NCBI GenBank assembly: GCA_965216755.1
Contig: CBDCGL010000006.1
Span: 1-12,279, forward strand
Length of the DNA stretch: 12,279 bases
Direction of reading: 5' to 3'
Source of the DNA: Alphaproteobacteria bacterium
Lineage (GTDB): Bacteria; Pseudomonadota; Alphaproteobacteria; UBA7887
The position numbers and the translations under genes were made by a program. This document shows, piece by piece, positions 3,028 to 11,207 of this stretch. How positions within the stretch are numbered: position 1 is the first letter of the stretch; each line of letters opens with the position of its first letter. The notes beneath the pieces are model-generated. The model was not told the DNA's origin. It searched no databases and worked only from the letters and a program-made list of their open reading frames with translations.

Positions 3028-3104
3028 CGTTTTTCTCTCCTTCGTTTGTCACCGTCATTAAGGAAAAGTCAGGTCAGCGGGGACGATGGGAACCGCCGGC
3101 CATC

Positions 3105-3470
3105 TCAATATCTCCCGTAGGTCCGACGTTGCGCCTGCGCTTTCTCAATGGTCCTTTGAACCATTGCCCCTGGCACCTTCCGTCCGTGCACTGATAGAGA
3201 GATCAAGAAAGCGGTAAGGAAGTCGTCGAGGTCGACGCCTGGCTTGGTCGCAATGTGCATCGGCCAGTCGAGTATCTTGGGTTTTGACGGGTCGGCGGTG
3301 TGGTAAACCCGTTCGAGTTCCGTCTTCTTGATGTAGTACTGCTCGTCTCGGCGCTCTACGCCGTGGGTCGTGACCGACCATTGTCGTCCTTGCCAGAGCA
3401 CCTTGCTCAGTCTGTGTCTGGCGCGTACGCGATTTGTCGAGTGGTAGATTGGGTTGTTGAATTGTTGCAT
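3105..3470 (-). CDS. Hypothetical phage/satellite-type protein (121 aa)
   Basis: Starts 3 nt after the primase stop. Conserved-looking motifs WQGRQWSVTTHGVE and DWPMHIATKPGVDLDDF. Confidence 0.8.
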   Translation of the reverse strand: MQQFNNPIYHSTNRVRARHRLSKVLWQGRQWSVTTHGVERRDEQYYIKKTELERVYHTADPSKPKILDWPMHIATKPGVDLDDFLTAFLISLSVHGRKVPGAMVQRTIEKAQAQRRTYGRY

Positions 3471-3473
3471 TGC

Positions 3474-5756
3474 TCAGGTGTCCTTTTTGCCTGGGGTTTC
3501 GTCGTCAAATGCGTTGTCGAGGTCCTCGGGGGAAACATCCTCGATCTCGCGGGCGGAGATCTTGACCGTTCGGCCTTTTCGCGTCTTGTTGTTCGGGAAC
3601 TTGTCAAAGACGTGGATGATGTAATCGCTGGCCTCGTATTCGCCGGGGACAAGCTGCTTCTTCAGAGTTGTCTCCCCGTAATTGTCGTGACCGACACATT
3701 CCTCAATGACATTCCGCAGTGACATTTCAAACGGCCGGTCCGATAGGTCGGCGTCACCAACAAGCTCGTTGGCGAGCCCCGTCCACCACATTTTCTGTTC
3801 GTCTTTTTCGCTGAGCTGTGCGTTCGGGTCGAAGAAAAATGCCAAGCTGTCTTTTTTAATCCCATCGGCGTCATGGCCAAGGGGGACGACCCGGCCACGC
3901 ATGCATAGCTTGTCCTTCCACCCCCGGCCGCGTCTTGCTTTCACGCTTGTCAGCCAAGTTTGAAATTGCGTTTTGTCAGCATCAGTAGAGGTGGCCGACC
4001 AAAGGAGATCGACGGCGGCCGACGTCGCCGATGAACCCCGAACGCCGCGGGAGGGGTCTTTGCCACTGTGATGAACCCCGAACGTGAAGCAGTCGAAGGT
4101 GTCCCGGATTGCATCCATCCACTTGGTCAATTCACTGGCATCTTGCGCCGAGTTCTCGTCCAGCTGACCGGCCCACCGGGCGACCGTATCAATGACCACC
4201 AAGCCGACGTTGCCACATTTGCGCTTACAGGCCGTCAGGAACGCTTGCCGGGTCCCCTCGTCCCGAAAATTTGGTAACTCTGAGAAGATATGAACCCGCG
4301 GGCACGGCTTCGTATCGTTGGCCTCCAGCCAAGCGGCAACACGTAGTTTGATATCGTCCTCACCTTCACCAGTGAGGTAGATGACATCAGGCGTTGAGGT
4401 CGTTTTGTTTCCGGCCCAATCCATACCTCTTGCGACCCGTTGAAGGAGATCCAAGATCACGAAGCTTTTGAATGCAGACCATGATCCGTAGAGAATTCCC
4501 GTGCCCTTTTCCGGCAGGACATTCGCAATAAGCCAACGGGGATCGGGCATCGCCAAATAGTCATTCTCGCTACGACACCGCTCAATCCAGTACTCGGCGT
4601 CAGCGGGCGTCAGCTCCTTTGACTTGTTGTCATCATCGTTGTCATTGGCGTTTACGAGCCTGGCATGCGCGAGTTCTGGCTCGCCCAGTGCTTCCGCATA
4701 TCCCACCATCCGCGCTCGAAAACTCCTAGGCGCATGACTGTTGTGAGCATAGGCGTAAGCGTTTCGGATCTTCCGGTCTAACTCGCGCGGCTCCCATTCG
4801 GGCTCACAACGCGGATTGAAGTAGGCGTCCATCAGCTCCAGGCATTTGTCCCGGGAGATGCTGAAGTCACGCACGTCGCACGCCACGTCATAGGTTCGTT
4901 GGTCGCCACCTTTGCCTTCGATCGCCGGAGCGGTCGACCTCAAGTAAGCCATGACGCTTTCGATGTCGTACAGATCGTCATACGCCTCGAATTTCCGGCT
5001 TCGATCTGTCTCGGGTGTGGCTTCTTTCAGCCGTTGAACCAACCATTCGGGGGCAGCCGTCGGTTTGCTGCCATCCGGCAAAGGCGCATAAACTTTCACG
5101 TAGCCACCGAGCCCGCGCGTATCGACGCAGGGGCCAAGCTTGCAGGCACTATTACTGGTTGGGGCGGGTGTGGTCACGAATAGGTGCCTGCCGCCAGATG
5201 GACTGTCTTGATGGCAGGCACTCGGGACTTCTTCGCCTCCCTGGGAGACCATGGTCTTCAGGGTCTCCGCGCCACTGACACCGTCCTTTGTGTCTAGGTC
5301 AACGGCCATCAAATGGCCGGAGCCGTCGGCGACTTCATGCCCCATAGCAGCACCGAGGTCGTGCCCCTCGTCAATCCAGCCATCGATCACTTTGATGTCG
5401 TCTGTGAGGATCGCTTTCCAGCTGACGCCGGGGATCGGCATTTTGGTGCGCGCCGTCAGTGGTAGAAGCGGGATACCATGAGCCACCCAAGTCCGGGCCC
5501 AGCGCTTCAGGTCGGCCCGGTCGATCGGATCTTGGAGGTTGACGCCTGGAGGCGGTTCATTAGCCGGATTACCAAAGTACTGAAGACCAAAATCAAAGTC
5601 ATGTGTCAAAATATCAAAAGATGCATTGAGTAATTGATCAGATTGATCTTGACATTTCGAGCTGATGATACTAGTTTGTCTTTCAGTTTTCATTGTCATC
5701 GTCCTTTTTGAACCCCCGGTTGCTTCCCTGACCGGGGGTTTTCTCTTTCTATTCAT
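3474..5756 (-). CDS. Bifunctional DNA primase/polymerase (Prim-Pol, AEP) + PriCT-like helical domain + AAA_25/RepA-like SF4 helicase
   Basis: AEP motifs AVDLDTKDG, SPSGGRHLF and VDTRGLGGYV. Helical domain FNPRCEPEWEPRELDRKIRNAY. Walker A variant GSWSAFKS, Walker B LVVIDT, and HHSGKD...RGSSA. The start is either 5756 (ATGA overlap with the xis stop) or 5693 (AAAGGA SD 8 nt upstream). Confidence 0.92.
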   Translation of the reverse strand: MNRKRKPPVREATGGSKRTMTMKTERQTSIISSKCQDQSDQLLNASFDILTHDFDFGLQYFGNPANEPPPGVNLQDPIDRADLKRWARTWVAHGIPLLPLTARTKMPIPGVSWKAILTDDIKVIDGWIDEGHDLGAAMGHEVADGSGHLMAVDLDTKDGVSGAETLKTMVSQGGEEVPSACHQDSPSGGRHLFVTTPAPTSNSACKLGPCVDTRGLGGYVKVYAPLPDGSKPTAAPEWLVQRLKEATPETDRSRKFEAYDDLYDIESVMAYLRSTAPAIEGKGGDQRTYDVACDVRDFSISRDKCLELMDAYFNPRCEPEWEPRELDRKIRNAYAYAHNSHAPRSFRARMVGYAEALGEPELAHARLVNANDNDDDNKSKELTPADAEYWIERCRSENDYLAMPDPRWLIANVLPEKGTGILYGSWSAFKSFVILDLLQRVARGMDWAGNKTTSTPDVIYLTGEGEDDIKLRVAAWLEANDTKPCPRVHIFSELPNFRDEGTRQAFLTACKRKCGNVGLVVIDTVARWAGQLDENSAQDASELTKWMDAIRDTFDCFTFGVHHSGKDPSRGVRGSSATSAAVDLLWSATSTDADKTQFQTWLTSVKARRGRGWKDKLCMRGRVVPLGHDADGIKKDSLAFFFDPNAQLSEKDEQKMWWTGLANELVGDADLSDRPFEMSLRNVIEECVGHDNYGETTLKKQLVPGEYEASDYIIHVFDKFPNNKTRKGRTVKISAREIEDVSPEDLDNAFDDETPGKKDT
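5649..5677 (+). promoter_or_regulatory. Sigma70-type promoter antisense to the primase gene
   Basis: TTGACA (5649-5654) - 17 nt - TAGTTT (5672-5677). Confidence 0.6.
5684..5748 (+). ncRNA. Predicted counter-transcribed antisense RNA (~65 nt)
   Basis: Bounded by the antisense promoter and a plus-strand terminator. Complementary to the SD and the ATGs at 5699 and 5693 of the primase mRNA. Ends are estimated. Confidence 0.55.
5711..5748 (+). terminator. Rho-independent terminator on the antisense strand
   Basis: Perfect 10-bp stem AACCCCCGGT (5711-5720) / ACCGGGGGTT (5731-5740), then TTCTCTTT. There is no U-tract in the minus direction. Confidence 0.75.
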
Positions 5757-5959
5757 GGCATGGCCTCCGCCGTCTCTTTGGTTTCACTGGCCGTATCGAG
5801 CATTCGGTCCAAGGCCGCCACGGGCACAAAAAACCGATTACCGATACGAATAGTCGGGATGTCCCCCTTCTTGGCGGCTGCATAGGCGGTTGGTGCCGAC
5901 ATTCCCAGGAACCGACGCGCAGCCTCTTTCAGGGGGATCGCTTTACGTTCGTCGCTCAT
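5753..5959 (-). CDS. Excisionase/AlpA-like winged HTH protein (HTH_17-like)
   Basis: IPLKEAARRFLGMSAPTAYAAAKKGDIPTIRIGNRFFVPVAALDRML. Strong SD AAGGAG. First gene of the primase operon. Confidence 0.88.
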   Translation of the reverse strand: MSDERKAIPLKEAARRFLGMSAPTAYAAAKKGDIPTIRIGNRFFVPVAALDRMLDTASETKETAEAMP

Positions 5960-5994
5960 AAAATCTCTCCTTGAGTTCTAACTTGTCCGGAATT

Positions 5995-6022
5995 AGTATC
6001 GCAAAAACTCAGAAAAAGTCAA
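5995..6022 (-). promoter_or_regulatory. Putative promoter of the xis-primase operon
   Basis: Minus-strand TTGACT (6022-6017) - 16 nt - GATACT (6000-5995), in the divergent intergenic region. Confidence 0.55.
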
Positions 6023-6078
6023 TTAAACGCGCTCCATCTGAGCGACGTTCGAACCGGACCGGTAAAGGATTGAAAAGA

Positions 6079-6717
6079 ATGGCAAAACCAGGGAGGCCGG
6101 CGGGGTCGGGAAAGAAGAGTTCGGCAATCATGATCCGGATGGCGCCGGACCTGCGCGAAGCGCTCGACAAAGCGGCCAAAGCGGATGGGTGCACGATGAC
6201 TGCGGAAGTCGAGCGTCGCCTGCGCGCCACTTTCGACCCCCTGACGGAGAAGACGTGGGCGGACGGCATCGAACTCGCACTCGCCAGCACGCCACAGTCT
6301 TATGGGCTGCTATTGCTGATTGCTGACTTGGTGGATCGTGTGCAGGTCACGTGCATTGGCACGTGGCACAAGGATGCGTTTGCTCGTCAGAAGGTGCGAG
6401 AGGCCATCATGCTCGTGCTCGACGCCCTGTTGCCCGAGCCCGCAGAGGGGATGCCAGCGCCGCAGCCAAAAAAAGGCTCAACGGCATGGGCGCTTGGCCT
6501 CGACCCCGCCCTGTCCAACTTCGTGAGCGCTGTGGAGCAGGTGTTGCAGAAGCCCGAAACAATCCGCGGGATGCTGCGCGATGATGTGCCGTACTGGCCG
6601 GCGCCATCAGGAACTACTCTCCGCTATGTGGCTATTCACGAAAAGCTGGGTAAAGAGTTGGTCCACGAATTGGCACTCTCTCTTCATCGAAAGTGGCCTC
6701 AAAATAGGACAGAATAA
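6079..6717 (+). CDS. Arc-like ribbon-helix-helix regulator with an extra C-terminal helical domain (212 aa); probable repressor
   Basis: AIMIRMAPDLREALDKAAKADGCTMTAEVERRL matches the Arc pattern. ATG 6079 has an AAAGGA SD. Divergent from xis. Confidence 0.8.
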   Translation: MAKPGRPAGSGKKSSAIMIRMAPDLREALDKAAKADGCTMTAEVERRLRATFDPLTEKTWADGIELALASTPQSYGLLLLIADLVDRVQVTCIGTWHKDAFARQKVREAIMLVLDALLPEPAEGMPAPQPKKGSTAWALGLDPALSNFVSAVEQVLQKPETIRGMLRDDVPYWPAPSGTTLRYVAIHEKLGKELVHELALSLHRKWPQNRTE

Positions 6718-6849
6718 CTGATCCATATTCGTCGCGAGGGGCCGCGACGAATGGCGACGAATAGATGCAAAGAATAACTAAGTCATTGGTTTATAAAGGA
6801 AAGAGTCGGCGCGAAGGGCGCGACGAATAATACTTAACAGCAATTATAG

Positions 6850-6899
6850 CGACCAGGGGGCGGGGGTGGTGTGAGCGTTAGCGAACACCCCCCTGGTCG
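6850..6899 (+). other. Central hairpin of the origin (ssi/sso-like)
   Basis: CGACCAGGGGG (6850-6860) / CCCCCTGGTCG (6889-6899). An inner GGTGT/ACACC stem closes the loop GAGCGTTAGCGA. Confidence 0.65.
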
Positions 6900-7009
6900 A
6901 TAAGCCAATGTTCAAGAGATGTGAATGGGAATGGGTCATCCAGATTTAATTCGTCGCGACACACACACTCTAGGACGAATAAATCGCGACGAATCCAATT
7001 CCTATTTTT

Positions 7010-7022
7010 TATCAATAGGTTA
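7010..7022 (+). promoter_or_regulatory. IHF-binding consensus site
   Basis: TATCAATAGGTTA is an exact WATCAANNNNTTR match. One-mismatch copies lie at 6779-6791 (-), 7112-7124 (-) and 7291-7303 (+). Confidence 0.6.
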
Positions 7023-7555
7023 AGCAGATTTCGAGATTCTATTCGTCGCGAGGGTCCGCGACGAATACAAAACGGCCGAGTATGCCCCGAGCAAGGTGCC
7101 CTTTTTCCGGATAAGTCTTTGAAAGTCCGTACGAATATCGTTTAGGGATTGAGCGCTTGCGGCGCGCAAGGGCCAAGAACCCGCCAAACAAACCCGCCGC
7201 TGCTCCAAAAATTTCGCGGAGGCAATGGCCGCTAAAGGTCACCGCGATCGCGCGGACTTCCCGCGCAATTTCCGCCTAAATATGGTTCCGGATCAATGAG
7301 TTAGGTCCTCCGGGCCACCCCGAGTACCTGCGAAATCGCCCGCCCACTCACCCACACCCAGGCCGCCGCGCCTTGGCTATTTCAATTGCCCCCAATCGGC
7401 CTTTGATGCCCCAAAACCCGCAGAATTCTGCGCCCTTCCGGAGCCATGCACGCCACGCATACCGACAGTAGCGTCAACATGCTTGAGGTAGTTGACAATT
7501 ATTCGGCTAGAACCCATGTTTATTGCGGGACACAGGCTTGAGAAGGATGGCCACA

Positions 7556-8227
7556 ATGGCTCGAAACCGCCAAAAAGCAGTCGCTTATTTCCGCACATCG
7601 AGCGCCGCGAACGTCGGCGAGGCCAAGGACACGCTTGCCCGGCAGCGCGCGGCGGTAACCGTTTACGCAAAAGCCAACGGCATCGAGATTGTCGGCGAGT
7701 TCTACGATGCCGCGGTCTCTGGCGCCGACCCCGTCGATGCCCGCCCGGGCTTCGCAGAGCTCCTTGGCCGCATTGCAGGCAATGGCGTGGGCATGGTGCT
7801 TGTCGAGGACCCTTCACGCTTCGCCCGTGATCTGATGGTCCAAATGACCGGGCACGAGATGCTTAAGCGAATGTGCGTCGATTTGGTCGCTGTGAACGCC
7901 CCTGAACATTTCCTCGAAGACACTCCCACGGCCACACTGGTCCGGCAGGTCCTGGGGGCAATCAGCCAGTTTGAGAAGGCACAGCTGGTCATGAAGCTCA
8001 AGGCGGCCAGAGACCGCAAGAAGGCCGAGACAGGCCGCTGTGGGGGCCGTAGGCCCGTTCCAGCCGCGACGGTCAAGGAAGCCCGACGCTTGGCGCGTCG
8101 CAACCCCAAGACCGGTAGGGTCCGGTCACTGCGAAGGATCGCCAAGGAGCTCGCGGATCTTGGCCATCTGGGCCCCTCGGGCAACGAGTACGGTGCCGAA
8201 AGCGTCAAACGCATGCTGGCCCGCTGA
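7556..8227 (+). CDS. Small serine recombinase (resolvase/invertase family) with a C-terminal HTH
   Basis: AVAYFRTSS catalytic motif, DAAVSGA, RPGFAELL, VEDPSRFARD, and C-terminal SLRRIAKELADLGH. ATG 7556 has an AAGGA SD; 7547 is an alternative start. Confidence 0.92.
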   Translation: MARNRQKAVAYFRTSSAANVGEAKDTLARQRAAVTVYAKANGIEIVGEFYDAAVSGADPVDARPGFAELLGRIAGNGVGMVLVEDPSRFARDLMVQMTGHEMLKRMCVDLVAVNAPEHFLEDTPTATLVRQVLGAISQFEKAQLVMKLKAARDRKKAETGRCGGRRPVPAATVKEARRLARRNPKTGRVRSLRRIAKELADLGHLGPSGNEYGAESVKRMLAR

Positions 8228-8231
8228 CGTT

Positions 8232-8299
8232 GCCCGTACAGCCACGCTAAGGCATTGATTTGACCTGGGTGCCCGCCACCTCAGCGGCCCTGTACGGGC
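8232..8299. repeat. 10-bp inverted repeat enclosing an exact IHF consensus
   Basis: GCCCGTACAG (8232-8241) / CTGTACGGGC (8290-8299). AATCAATGCCTTA on the minus strand at 8248-8260. Confidence 0.6.
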
Positions 8300-8607
8300 C
8301 TCTGTGGGCCCCGAATTCAGCATAATGCGGCACCGTGCGCGGCCCCCGGCATGCCGGGAAGTCAGGGACCCCTGCACCCAAGAGAGGTCGCCCACGCAAA
8401 GAAAGTGGATTTTTGCGCAAAATCTTCCTGCGTTTTCGACCCGGTCTTTGAATACCGCCGCCCCAGCGCATTCAGATCAAACCCGATCTCGAAATATATC
8501 TGGGGTCAAAATCTCCGAAATCCTCCCGTTTTTCCCCACCCCTGGCCTGCTCGGGCGCTCCTCGTGGATGCCCAATATTCCTATGATCAATATGTACGAT
8601 ATTTCTA

Positions 8608-8636
8608 TTGACTGCATCATTATCCATTGGGACAAT
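8608..8636 (+). promoter_or_regulatory. Putative sigma70 promoter of the rightward operon
   Basis: TTGACT (8608-8613) - 17 nt - GACAAT (8631-8636), with a TGn extension, in an AT-rich patch. Confidence 0.65.
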
Positions 8637-8670
8637 GAGGGGAATATGAAGCGAACAAGGGACGAGATTG

Positions 8671-8991
8671 ATGTTGGCGACTGTCCAGAGTTGGTTCAGT
8701 GGAGAGCTTGAAGAGGGGTCTTGGGACACCTTCCGAGATCGTTTGACTGCGCTCTTCGACGACCCGACGGCAGAGAACGCTGAGGCGATCGTCATTGCAG
8801 CCGACCACCTGTTCAGACAGGCCGACCAGGGAACCAATTCCGGAGTAAAGGTGGCCGATATCGAAGCTGCGGCGCGAGCCCTTGAAACTCTAGCGCTCGA
8901 CCCGTCGGTACCGGATCTGTTGGCCGTCCGGGCGGGCTCGTTGCTCGGCTCACGTCAGGTGTGGAAGCGAGGGCTGCGCCATGGCAGCTGA
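8671..8991 (+). CDS. Hypothetical helical protein, paralogue A
   Basis: First long ORF after the promoter. Aligns with the next ORF. Start uncertain (8668 TTG or 8671 ATG). Confidence 0.8.
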   Translation: MLATVQSWFSGELEEGSWDTFRDRLTALFDDPTAENAEAIVIAADHLFRQADQGTNSGVKVADIEAAARALETLALDPSVPDLLAVRAGSLLGSRQVWKRGLRHGS

Positions 8992-9316
8992 CGTTCACAC
9001 GCCCCCCAATCAGCCGCATGGTGCCGGTGGTGCTGTCGGAGCCGTGGCGCGTAAGGTTTGGCCTGAATTTCACGGTCGCCTGATCGCGTTGCTATCGGAC
9101 CCGACGCCTCTGACTGCCGCCGAGGCAGTGGCCGCTGCGGAATATCTCTTTGCCCTCCGCGATGCCAACACCCATGCCGTCTCCAGCGACGATGTGAAGG
9201 TGGCCGCGGACGCGCTCGCGACCATAGCCCTTCATCCGTCTGTGCCCGACGATGTCGCCCTGCGCGCCGGAATTCTCCTCGATAGCCGCCGCCGTTGGCG
9301 CAGCAAGGAGGGTTGA
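8981..9316 (+). CDS. Hypothetical helical protein, paralogue B
   Basis: Overlaps the previous stop, with a GAGGGG SD. Shares RLxALxxDPT and ALxPSVPDxxAxRAGxLLxSRxxW with paralogue A. Confidence 0.82.
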   Translation: MAADVHTPPNQPHGAGGAVGAVARKVWPEFHGRLIALLSDPTPLTAAEAVAAAEYLFALRDANTHAVSSDDVKVAADALATIALHPSVPDDVALRAGILLDSRRRWRSKEG

Positions 9317-9319
9317 ACG

Positions 9320-9736
9320 ATGGCCGCCCAGATAAGTCCGCAAGCGCCCATGCGACTGATTGACCTGAAGCGGCAGCCCACCGAGGCGGAGTTAGCCCGG
9401 GCTCGCAAGAACGTCTCAGCCAATCCGGTGATCGCGACGGTCGTGTATGAGTTGGTTGAAGTCGAACCACCGTCTTTTGACCGCCATACAAAGCAGACTT
9501 TCCCGGGCAAGCGTTTGGCCGATGTTCGCGCCTACGCCGGCCGAAAGGCTTGGCCGGGCGCCCTGGTCGCCGCCACGGGTGGTCTACCGCCCATCAACGA
9601 TCCGGCCCAATCGCCCGAACTTCGCCGAGTGTTTGAGAATTTGGCCGTGGACGGCTTCACGCACGTGCAGGCCCCCCACTCATACCCGCGTCCAATCTGG
9701 GACGTCATCGATGGCTCCGAACCCTGGGGCCGCTAA
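9320..9736 (+). CDS. Hypothetical protein (138 aa)
   Basis: AAGGAGG SD. Starts 3 nt after the previous stop, in the operon direction. Confidence 0.78.
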   Translation: MAAQISPQAPMRLIDLKRQPTEAELARARKNVSANPVIATVVYELVEVEPPSFDRHTKQTFPGKRLADVRAYAGRKAWPGALVAATGGLPPINDPAQSPELRRVFENLAVDGFTHVQAPHSYPRPIWDVIDGSEPWGR

Positions 9737-10454: not shown

Positions 10455-11207
10455 ATGTCAGAATTTAACAATGAAAATGGCGGTGGCGCCCCAGCCGCAC
10501 CTGGACCGGCCCCAACGCCAACTGAGCCCGCGGCACCAGCGCCTCAGACCATCCGGGCTCGTCCAATCAACGAGGCTCTATCACCTGCCGAGCAACATCT
10601 CCTCCGTGATGCGGCAAAGAACGCGCCCAAGGATTTTGGTGCCGGGATCAAGGCCGCGTGGGAGCAAATCAATGCTGCACAAGCCAACGCACCAACTACT
10701 ATGGTTGATCAATCAAAGCCGGCGCCAGTCCAGGGGACGCCGTATCCACAGGCGCCGGCAGAGGTCCAGGGGGTCAATTTCGACAACCTGGACCTCACTA
10801 ATTCCGAGCAACGTAGCCAGGTTGATCATGCCCTTGCTGAAGCAACCAATGGTGCTTTAACTGTCGGCCAGGTCGAAGGGATTAGCCAGGCGATCGATCT
10901 CATGCCAAGCAAACTCGAAAATCTCTGGCTGGAAAGCGAACAGAACCCCGAGGTCTTCGGCCAAAAGCTGACGGAGGTGATTGAACAAGGCGACGACCGG
11001 GTGCGGGAGACTGTGTACGGTGGCAGCGCCGACGCTTTCAAGGCGGGCATGGCTGAGATCAGTTCCGCTCTCGACAATATCGGCGCGAGTAATGAGCTCC
11101 GAGCTCAGATTAACGAGAGCCTAGTCTTGTCGGATGTCCGTGGCCACACTCAAATGCTCGCACTTGCACGCGTCGTCAACAAGCGGACGGCCCATGCTGC
11201 CGATTGA
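10455..11207 (+). CDS. Hypothetical protein, capsid-scaffolding-like (250 aa)
   Basis: GGAG SD. Pro/Ala-rich disordered N-terminus and acidic helical body. The scaffolding function is an inference. Confidence 0.7.
   Translation: MSEFNNENGGGAPAAPGPAPTPTEPAAPAPQTIRARPINEALSPAEQHLLRDAAKNAPKDFGAGIKAAWEQINAAQANAPTTMVDQSKPAPVQGTPYPQAPAEVQGVNFDNLDLTNSEQRSQVDHALAEATNGALTVGQVEGISQAIDLMPSKLENLWLESEQNPEVFGQKLTEVIEQGDDRVRETVYGGSADAFKAGMAEISSALDNIGASNELRAQINESLVLSDVRGHTQMLALARVVNKRTAHAAD

Follow-up and report, generated by a model that had tools for sequence, protein, structure and literature searches.

A putative counter-transcribed RNA gene opposite the translation start of a PrimPol-helicase replication gene on a small alphaproteobacterial contig

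This work concerns a short element of contig C6 (CBDCGL010000006.1) from an alphaproteobacterial genome, in which a promoter-like sequence and a terminator-like hairpin lie on the strand opposite the translation start of rep, the gene for a PrimPol-helicase replication protein. The window analysed here is the complete contig, of 12,279 bp; the genome comprises a 4.85-Mb contig and ten much smaller ones, each of 4-26 kb. A first-pass annotation of the locus had proposed an antisense RNA that would act on rep in the manner of repABC plasmids, either keeping the gene silent or limiting copy number. Our analysis leads us to favour, with moderate confidence, a counter-transcribed RNA (ctRNA) of ~65 nt that holds back translation of rep and thereby keeps plasmid copy number in check; the helix-turn-helix (HTH) protein of the HTH_17 family encoded just upstream of rep probably adds control at the level of transcription.

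Antisense RNAs at replication genes of described plasmids

By analogy, the closest system in both mechanism and anatomy is the CopG/RNAII pair of pMV158 and not repABC. RNAII is described as a single hairpin flanked by a 5' tail of 17 nt and a U-rich end, and it inhibits translation of repB together with the co-transcribed repressor CopG (PMC4485353). The C6 locus resembles this rolling-circle plasmid of Streptococcus in that a small DNA-binding gene is co-transcribed upstream of rep and the predicted antisense RNA would come from the cop-rep junction. The resemblance extends to a single-stranded 5' tail, a lone hairpin that doubles as the terminator, a U-tail and coverage of the rep initiation region, although at C6 this is a predicted anatomy. 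The proteins and hosts differ, with a rolling-circle RepB and a ribbon-helix-helix CopG on one side, and a PrimPol and AAA_25 protein, an HTH_17 protein and an alphaproteobacterial host on the other. RNAII is also the shorter of the two, at about 48 nt with an 8-bp stem, against ~65 nt and a 12-pair stem predicted here.

In repABC plasmids, the ctRNA (IncA) is encoded between repB and repC, as a short antisense RNA that represses the initiator gene post-transcriptionally (PMC2873474). The C6 locus shares the host class and the position of a (here putative) short antisense RNA just upstream of the initiator gene, but repABC replicons are large and of low copy number, whereas C6 would be a 12-kb plasmid. 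A Pfam scan that covered 21 reading frames of the window gave no match to the ParA, ParB or RepC families. As there is no Rfam match either, C6 is not a repABC replicon, and the analogy drawn at first holds for the class of control and the host class but not for membership.

Two other systems are built around primase-helicase proteins. In pSYSA of Synechocystis, ssr7036 precedes the gene of the primase-helicase CyRepA1, and an abundant cis-antisense RNA, asRNA1, arises from their junction; this RNA, 153 nt long, covers the small gene's coding sequence and has been proposed to take part in a ColE1-like, RNase E-dependent priming switch (PMC9978351). C6 likewise combines a small gene with a putative antisense RNA and a primase-helicase Rep, but asRNA1 is longer and covers the small gene. 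CyRepA1 was considered as a homologue of the C6 Rep and rejected: the two are unrelated (BLASTP E 0.13), and CyRepA1 has different Pfam domains, DUF3854 and a superfamily 1-type helicase. As for pRN1 of Sulfolobus, its orf56 and orf904 encode a small transcriptional repressor and a co-transcribed prim-pol/helicase replication protein (PMC4234260). This repressor plus prim-pol/helicase operon is like that of C6, except that the host is archaeal and the helicase belongs to superfamily 3; the words 'antisense' and 'ctRNA' do not occur in that paper.

Anatomy and rarity of the putative antisense unit

The unit lies across the junction between the HTH_17 gene and rep, with the following elements:

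5648-5654, + strand: putative -35 element CTTGACA (TTGACA at 5649-5654, preceded by C5648), read from the sequence
5671-5677, + strand: putative -10 element (C)TAGTTT (TAGTTT at 5672-5677), 17 nt after the -35 element; fits TAnnnT and CTAnnT
~5685-5749, + strand: predicted antisense RNA of ~65 nt, from the fold, both ends deduced
5710-5741, + strand: terminator hairpin, 10 Watson-Crick pairs plus G-U extensions, giving 12 pairs
5741-5753, + strand only: T-rich tail TTCTCTTTCTATT
5702-5707, - strand: rep Shine-Dalgarno (SD) sequence AAAGGA, followed after 2 nt by ATG 5699 and after 8 nt by ATG 5693
5691-5699, - strand: in-frame rep starts ATG 5699-5697 and ATG 5693-5691
5754-5768, - strand: alternative in-frame rep start ATG 5756-5754, which forms ATGA with the TGA stop of the HTH gene and is preceded at a distance of 7 nt by GGAGG (5768-5764)
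5753-5959, - strand: gene of the HTH_17 (excisionase-type) DNA-binding protein, 68 amino acids, first of the operon (Pfam E 9.2e-9)
3474-5756, - strand: rep open reading frame (ORF), with Prim-Pol (PF09250, residues 90-228) and AAA_25 (PF13481, residues 404-567) domains (Pfam)
5995-6022, - strand: promoter-like site of the operon, TTGACT, 16 nt, (TG)GATACT (promoter scan)

The plus-strand TTGACA-N17-TAGTTT and the hairpin downstream of it, on which the first-pass annotation was built, are read directly at 5649-5677 and 5711-5740. In the Watson-Crick stem, which starts 33 nt after the -10 element, AACCCCCGGT (5711-5720) pairs with ACCGGGGGTT (5731-5740) around the loop TGCTTCCCTG. What had been called a perfect 10-bp GC stem does have ten perfect pairs, but seven of them, not all, are G-C. 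With the RNA start set at a purine 8 nt past the -10 element and its end set within the T-tract, the computed fold has one hairpin, preceded by ~26 unstructured nt at the 5' end and followed by a U-rich 3' end. AAAGGA, ATG 5693 and also ATG 5699, a second in-frame start that had been overlooked, all lie inside the predicted RNA, and the complementarity is perfect. The unit is thus encoded opposite the SD sequence and starts of rep, on a contig that looks like an autonomous replicon, which is where a ctRNA gene is expected.

The two strands are not equivalent. As first noted, the T-tract is confined to the plus strand, because the minus-strand stem runs into CAAAAAGGA. Owing to its G-U pairs, the hairpin is also stronger as plus-strand RNA (12 pairs, -21.6 kcal/mol) than as minus-strand RNA (10 pairs, -18.1 kcal/mol). 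The plus-only T-tract, the gain from G-U pairing and the presence of a promoter-like sequence on the same strand at the right distance favour the predicted plus-strand transcript as the functional form. As for its target, when either 141 or 431 nt of the sense mRNA are folded, UUCAAAAAGGACGAUGACAAUG, which includes the SD sequence and both AUGs, stays unpaired beside the complementary hairpin. In these models, an accessible single strand of mRNA next to a hairpin faces the single-stranded 5' tail of the antisense RNA, which is the geometry of pMV158 RNAII.

Both signals are rare in the window. TTGACA-N16-18-TANNNT is present once, against 0.09 expected, and 18 of 200 shuffled sequences contain at least one copy; CTTGAC-N17-CTANNT is also present once, against 0.01 expected (1/200 shuffles). 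CTTGAC-N17-CTATAT is the alphaproteobacterial (rhizobial) promoter consensus (PMC2873474). A plus-strand RNA of 69 nt folds at -21.6 kcal/mol, compared with -12.06 +/- 2.14 kcal/mol for shuffled versions (z -4.46), none of 200 being as stable, and its hairpin ranks second strongest among the 13 sites of a terminator scan of the window.

We also looked at the whole genome, where 806 perfect hairpins were found on both strands (at least 9 bp, loop of 3-10 nt). Forty-seven of these have at least six T in the next 10 nt, 44 on the chromosome, two on C6 and one on C9; we call them strict terminators. The second one of C6 closes the rep operon, so this type of terminator sits at an expected place. 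According to a crude map of ORFs (at least 120 amino acids, with a G+C content at third codon positions, GC3, of at least 0.62), which covers 83% of the chromosome, 38 of the 47 are intergenic, and this bias is the behaviour of real terminators. The site at the rep start is the only one of the 47 with TTGACN-N16-18-TANNNT at most 150 nt upstream. The chromosome has 22 copies of TTGACA-N16-18-TANNNT, of which 16 lie in the 17% of the DNA outside the ORF map; for three control motifs, the figures are 30/62, 5/23 and 15/31. The motif is therefore rare inside genes. Lastly, a T-tailed hairpin of -10 kcal/mol or lower lies no more than 260 nt downstream of four of the genome's 111 promoter-like motifs, and the unit at the rep start is the most compact of the four. 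The other three such sites with TTGACN-N16-18-TANNNT, at 4632393-4632577 (+), 3427563-3427327 (-) and 2937522-2937400 (-) of the chromosome, are possible small-RNA genes. On this evidence, the putative promoter and terminator signals for a short RNA (~50-150 nt class) are statistically unusual, yet the -10 element is weak.

Proposed control of rep and competing explanations

In the mechanism that we favour, a sigma-70-type promoter (CTTGACA, 17 nt, TAGTTT), which overlaps the first codons of rep but is read from the other strand, would fire toward the HTH gene, and an intrinsic terminator between the two genes would stop transcription ~65 nt on. The RNA would then pair with the rep mRNA via the accessible single-stranded stretch or via complementary loops. 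This pairing would occlude the ribosome-binding site of rep, such that Rep synthesis would be inversely tied to plasmid copy number. The HTH_17 protein, a candidate Cop-like repressor, would probably provide a second, transcriptional layer. We infer the production of the RNA, its ends, the inhibition of translation and the repressor role of the HTH protein from the signals described above. Of the plasmid-style antisense control envisaged at first, we retain a compact and rare unit opposite the rep start, with a target that is single-stranded in folds, all of it at the level of sequence; the repABC model is abandoned. Silencing of rep had been offered as an alternative to copy-number control, but the latter suits better a contig with the appearance of an autonomous plasmid.

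No description of antisense RNA control of Prim-Pol or PrimPol-helicase plasmid replicons was found in full-text searches of the literature. If the RNA is real, antisense copy-number control extends to plasmids with a PrimPol-helicase initiator. It would be a familiar kind of control applied to an unfamiliar replication gene by an RNA that belongs to no RNA family. The mechanism itself is textbook, and the gain would be in breadth, with no new principle. The locus would nevertheless offer a clear example of a regulatory RNA gene whose promoter lies inside the coding sequence of its own target, as well as a handle on the incompatibility and copy number of a small cryptic alphaproteobacterial plasmid, a potential vector backbone.

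A number of observations weigh against a ctRNA at this place. The RNA and its effect are predicted from sequence signals, and all motif definitions were fixed once the site was known. The promoter scan of the window did not report the unit's promoter, because TAGTTT agrees with TATAAT at three of six positions, albeit those of TAnnnT. CTTGAC-N17-CTANNT occurs just once on the 4.85-Mb chromosome, and the rhizobial consensus may not be the usual promoter of this host. In a cmscan of the whole window with all 4227 Rfam families (E <= 1), nothing was found at 5649-5750, and the sole match, at 7042-7078, is unrelated; the curated ctRNA families of Rfam include ctRNA_p42d, ctRNA_pGA1, ctRNA_pND324 and ctRNA_pT181. 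Further points against it, from the relatives of rep and from the coding sequence, are taken up below with the explanations to which they lend weight.

The alternative that survives best, though we regard it as unlikely, is that the hairpin acts in the sense mRNA or in the DNA, the promoter-like and T-tract features of the plus strand being by-products. It might serve between the two cistrons as a structure for RNA processing or stabilisation, act as a barrier that tunes translational coupling or, as an inverted repeat of 11 bp, be the binding site of a dimeric protein, for instance the HTH_17 protein or Rep. The hairpin does form in the mRNA as well, where its -18.1 kcal/mol is equalled in two of 200 shuffles and it persists in the 431-nt fold, and its position is precisely between the HTH stop codon and the rep SD sequence. 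Moreover, the T-tract corresponds on the other strand to AAUAGAAAGAGAAAA, a purine-rich run that possibly has a role of its own, and AT-rich DNA yields -10-like hexamers on both strands, as exemplified by ATGAAA-17-TATCAT at 5693-5665 of the minus strand. However, the CAAAAAGGA that follows the minus-strand stem means that there is no terminator in the sense direction, and the G-U pairs strengthen the plus-strand version. The inverted repeat is not the operator of the operon promoter, since that promoter is ~250 nt distant. A perfect -35 element, 17-nt spacing and TAnnnT, all on the same strand and 33 nt upstream of the stem, would also be an improbable by-product, given that this combination is found at one of the 47 strict terminators.

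It is also conceivable, with a somewhat smaller probability, that the unit is a relic or a product of chance. An AT-rich foreign segment with an old promoter or terminator would have been captured between the HTH gene and the PrimPol domain, where it would now be an in-frame N-terminal extension of Rep with no present regulatory role. The N-terminus of the protein lends itself to this idea. In an alignment of 15 sequences (the window protein, 13 database proteins of 25-32% identity and the chromosomal paralogue), the 14 homologues all begin no more than a few residues from the first conserved helix. In the window ORF, that helix is preceded by 60 residues if the count starts at ATG 5693 and by 80 if it starts at ATG 5756; these residues are without counterpart in those homologues and thus unique in the alignment. 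Composition is atypical in this region as well, GC3 being 0.25 in the 40 codons at 5696-5577 as opposed to 0.64 for the gene. Both the -35 and -10 elements fall in the low-GC3 stretch, with several consensus bases at third codon positions (TGT, CAA, ACT). The low GC3 fits equally well a coding region bent to carry a promoter and a recently captured AT-rich segment, and that it may be just the latter is a further point against the ctRNA. As for the stem, it was found as a pattern in genome contigs at no fewer than 117 unrelated loci from many phyla; it is hence a generic terminator stem that defines no family.

That no comparable unit was found in distant relatives and paralogues of rep adds to the case for a relic. 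The closest Rep homologue in a set of 5.8 billion proteins is 36% identical, and close relatives were not found in genome contigs, plasmids (DNA and protein), viral contigs or phages. In 41 related genomes, Rep relatives are limited to the chromosomal paralogue, with 29-32% identity. We searched metagenome contigs with a profile made from a five-sequence alignment and fetched 80 loci. Forty-seven of them were analysed, those in which the match starts at query residue 83 or before; the gene start was not captured in the other 33, which were dropped. Antisense terminator-like hairpins were found between -250 and +200 nt of the start in four of these 47 distant relatives (24-38% identity):

-55 to -78: antisense hairpin of L011, -8.5 kcal/mol
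-178 to -208: antisense hairpin of L021, -12.2 kcal/mol
+76 to +102: antisense hairpin of L022, -9.3 kcal/mol
-217 to -237: antisense hairpin of L069, -10.7 kcal/mol

All four are weak, and none of the 47 relatives has a hairpin equal to that of the window in strength and position; a sense terminator-like hairpin is present in one (L029). Three of the 42 upstream ORFs in these loci are HTH_17. The set has little power, because many of its loci look phage-like and few have HTH_17 upstream. Two further HTH_17 plus Prim-Pol modules occur in the same genome. One is on the 10-kb contig C7 (~3090-4420), adjoins a tyrosine integrase gene and encodes an HTH protein 55% identical to that of the window. 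The other belongs to an integrase-HTH-primase island of the chromosome (C11 2413000-2415400, L003), with a primase of 29-32% identity. The HTH-primase junctions of both are devoid of the antisense unit. The comparable unit is accordingly found in 0/47 distant relatives and 0/2 paralogues, all of which also lack the N-terminal extension. At a closer range, contigs of three sequencing runs of one study (Logan) are identical to the window where they cover it, including record 3 of run X1 (4884-9676, 0 differences), and no diverged copy of 5600-5760 is present among them.

Set against the relic explanation, the position over the SD sequence and start codons of the sole essential replication gene is that of a functional ctRNA. 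Both signals are intact and correctly spaced, and a useless, unregulated antisense promoter inside rep would be costly.

The choice of the rep start codon affects how the hairpin is to be read. The database gene call starts at ATG 5693, 8 nt past AGGA, and gives a protein of 739 amino acids. If translation instead begins at ATG 5756, coupled to that of the HTH gene, the hairpin belongs to the coding region of rep, which also counts against the ctRNA. Four-base start/stop overlaps with the upstream ORF are present in 12 of the 47 distant relatives. The 20 codons between ATG 5756 and ATG 5693 have an atypical GC1 < GC2 (G+C at first and second codon positions, 0.35/0.60), which is weak evidence that they are non-coding. 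The N-terminus MNRKRKPPVREATGGSKR, which had been described as the hairpin read as protein, may be either that or genuine Rep sequence from ATG 5756; it is not to be dismissed as a mere artefact, as ATG 5756 has the ATGA overlap and GGAGG 7 nt upstream. Relative to ATG 5756, the predicted RNA spans +8 to +72, and it also covers the downstream SD sequence and AUGs. A later start for rep is unlikely: ahead of the conserved domain, TTG 5609 is the only canonical in-frame start downstream of 5693, and it has no SD sequence. A small hydrophobic peptide from the plus strand (ORF 5665-5853, 62 amino acids) was also rejected, since the ORF starts upstream of the predicted transcription start and the 65-nt RNA contains no ATG.

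It is tempting to speculate further about these two in-frame entries, the coupled ATG 5756 and the SD-dependent ATG 5699/5693, which bracket the hairpin. A ctRNA gene with its promoter in synonymous positions of a lineage-specific AT-rich extension might gate both, and a circuit of the pMV158 type, Cop plus ctRNA, might have arisen independently within the coding region of a PrimPol-helicase initiator. We consider this elaborate scenario doubtful.

Least probable of all is that the plus-strand RNA is made for another purpose, be it as a primer or pre-primer, in an RNA-RNA switch of the ColE1/pSYSA type or by transcriptional interference with the operon promoter. In pSYSA, a small gene and an abundant antisense RNA precede the primase-helicase Rep, with priming by the sense RNA proposed (PMC9978351), and the AT-rich stretch beside a GC hairpin at C6 resembles an unwinding or priming site, but the origin-like repeats are ~1 kb off (6727-7066), Rep has a primase domain of its own, the short RNA covers the SD sequence and AUGs precisely and would end before the operon promoter, and CyRepA1 is unrelated to the C6 Rep.

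C6 as a probable plasmid and its other features

The remaining features of the contig that bear on its nature are:

3470-3105 and 3027-2683, - strand: ORF121 and ORF114, with no known function
2617-2650, - strand: terminator-like hairpin that closes the HTH-rep-ORF121-ORF114 operon, the strongest in the window; its tail is TTTTCTATTT
7523-8227: serine resolvase gene (Pfam)
427-1083, + strand: RelE-family toxin-like gene (114 amino acids, PF06296 E 7.9e-7) and, after 3 nt, an HTH_3/MqsA-like gene (102 amino acids)

The operon-end terminator has a tail of the same type as that of the antisense unit. In the 21 scanned frames, the Pfam families found are Prim-Pol/AAA_25, HTH_17, Resolvase, RelE, HTH_3 and a weak Phage_integrase. 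The PrimPol-helicase protein is the sole plausible replication initiator on C6.

Between ORF248 and the resolvase gene, the 11-nt repeat TCGCGACGAAT is present in eight copies (at most one mismatch) in both orientations at 6727-7066, against 0.4 expected. The array includes two near-identical 27-nt palindromes, at 6726-6752 and 7040-7066, and AT-rich spacers. It is a probable iteron/origin, partition or res region. The 427-1083 gene pair has the organisation of a toxin-first toxin-antitoxin module and probably plays a role in plasmid maintenance.

No terminal overlap was found between the contig ends. Joining them nevertheless produces a continuous minus-strand ORF of 201 amino acids, running from 253 down to 1 and then from 12279 down to 11927, whose C-terminal half weakly matches Phage_integrase in Pfam (E 1.2e-4, below cut-off). 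This suggests that C6 represents the whole of a circular molecule, the two ends of the contig meeting within a small tyrosine-recombinase-like gene. At positions 84-252, a second contig in runs X1-X3 matches with 14 differences. Based on the iteron-like repeats, the resolvase, the toxin-antitoxin pair and the ORF across the ends, C6 is probably a small circular, autonomous plasmid. GcrA is encoded in the same ~5-Mb genome, in keeping with an alphaproteobacterial host.

On the other side of the operon's control region, ORF 5971-6717 (+) diverges from the HTH-rep operon and likely starts at an ATG near 6079 (MAKPGRPAG...). Neither Pfam nor NCBIfam assigns it to a family; the shorter form has a weak match to phrog_1388 (E 1.1e-4) over residues 15-52. 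Its product may be a second regulator that shares the control region at 5960-6080. A 20-nt near-palindrome lies at 5978-5997, and an inverted partner, 80% complementary, at 10797-10816. Within the helicase part of rep, GATGAACCCCGAACG forms an exact 15-nt direct repeat at 4030-4044 and 4070-4084, 40 nt apart.

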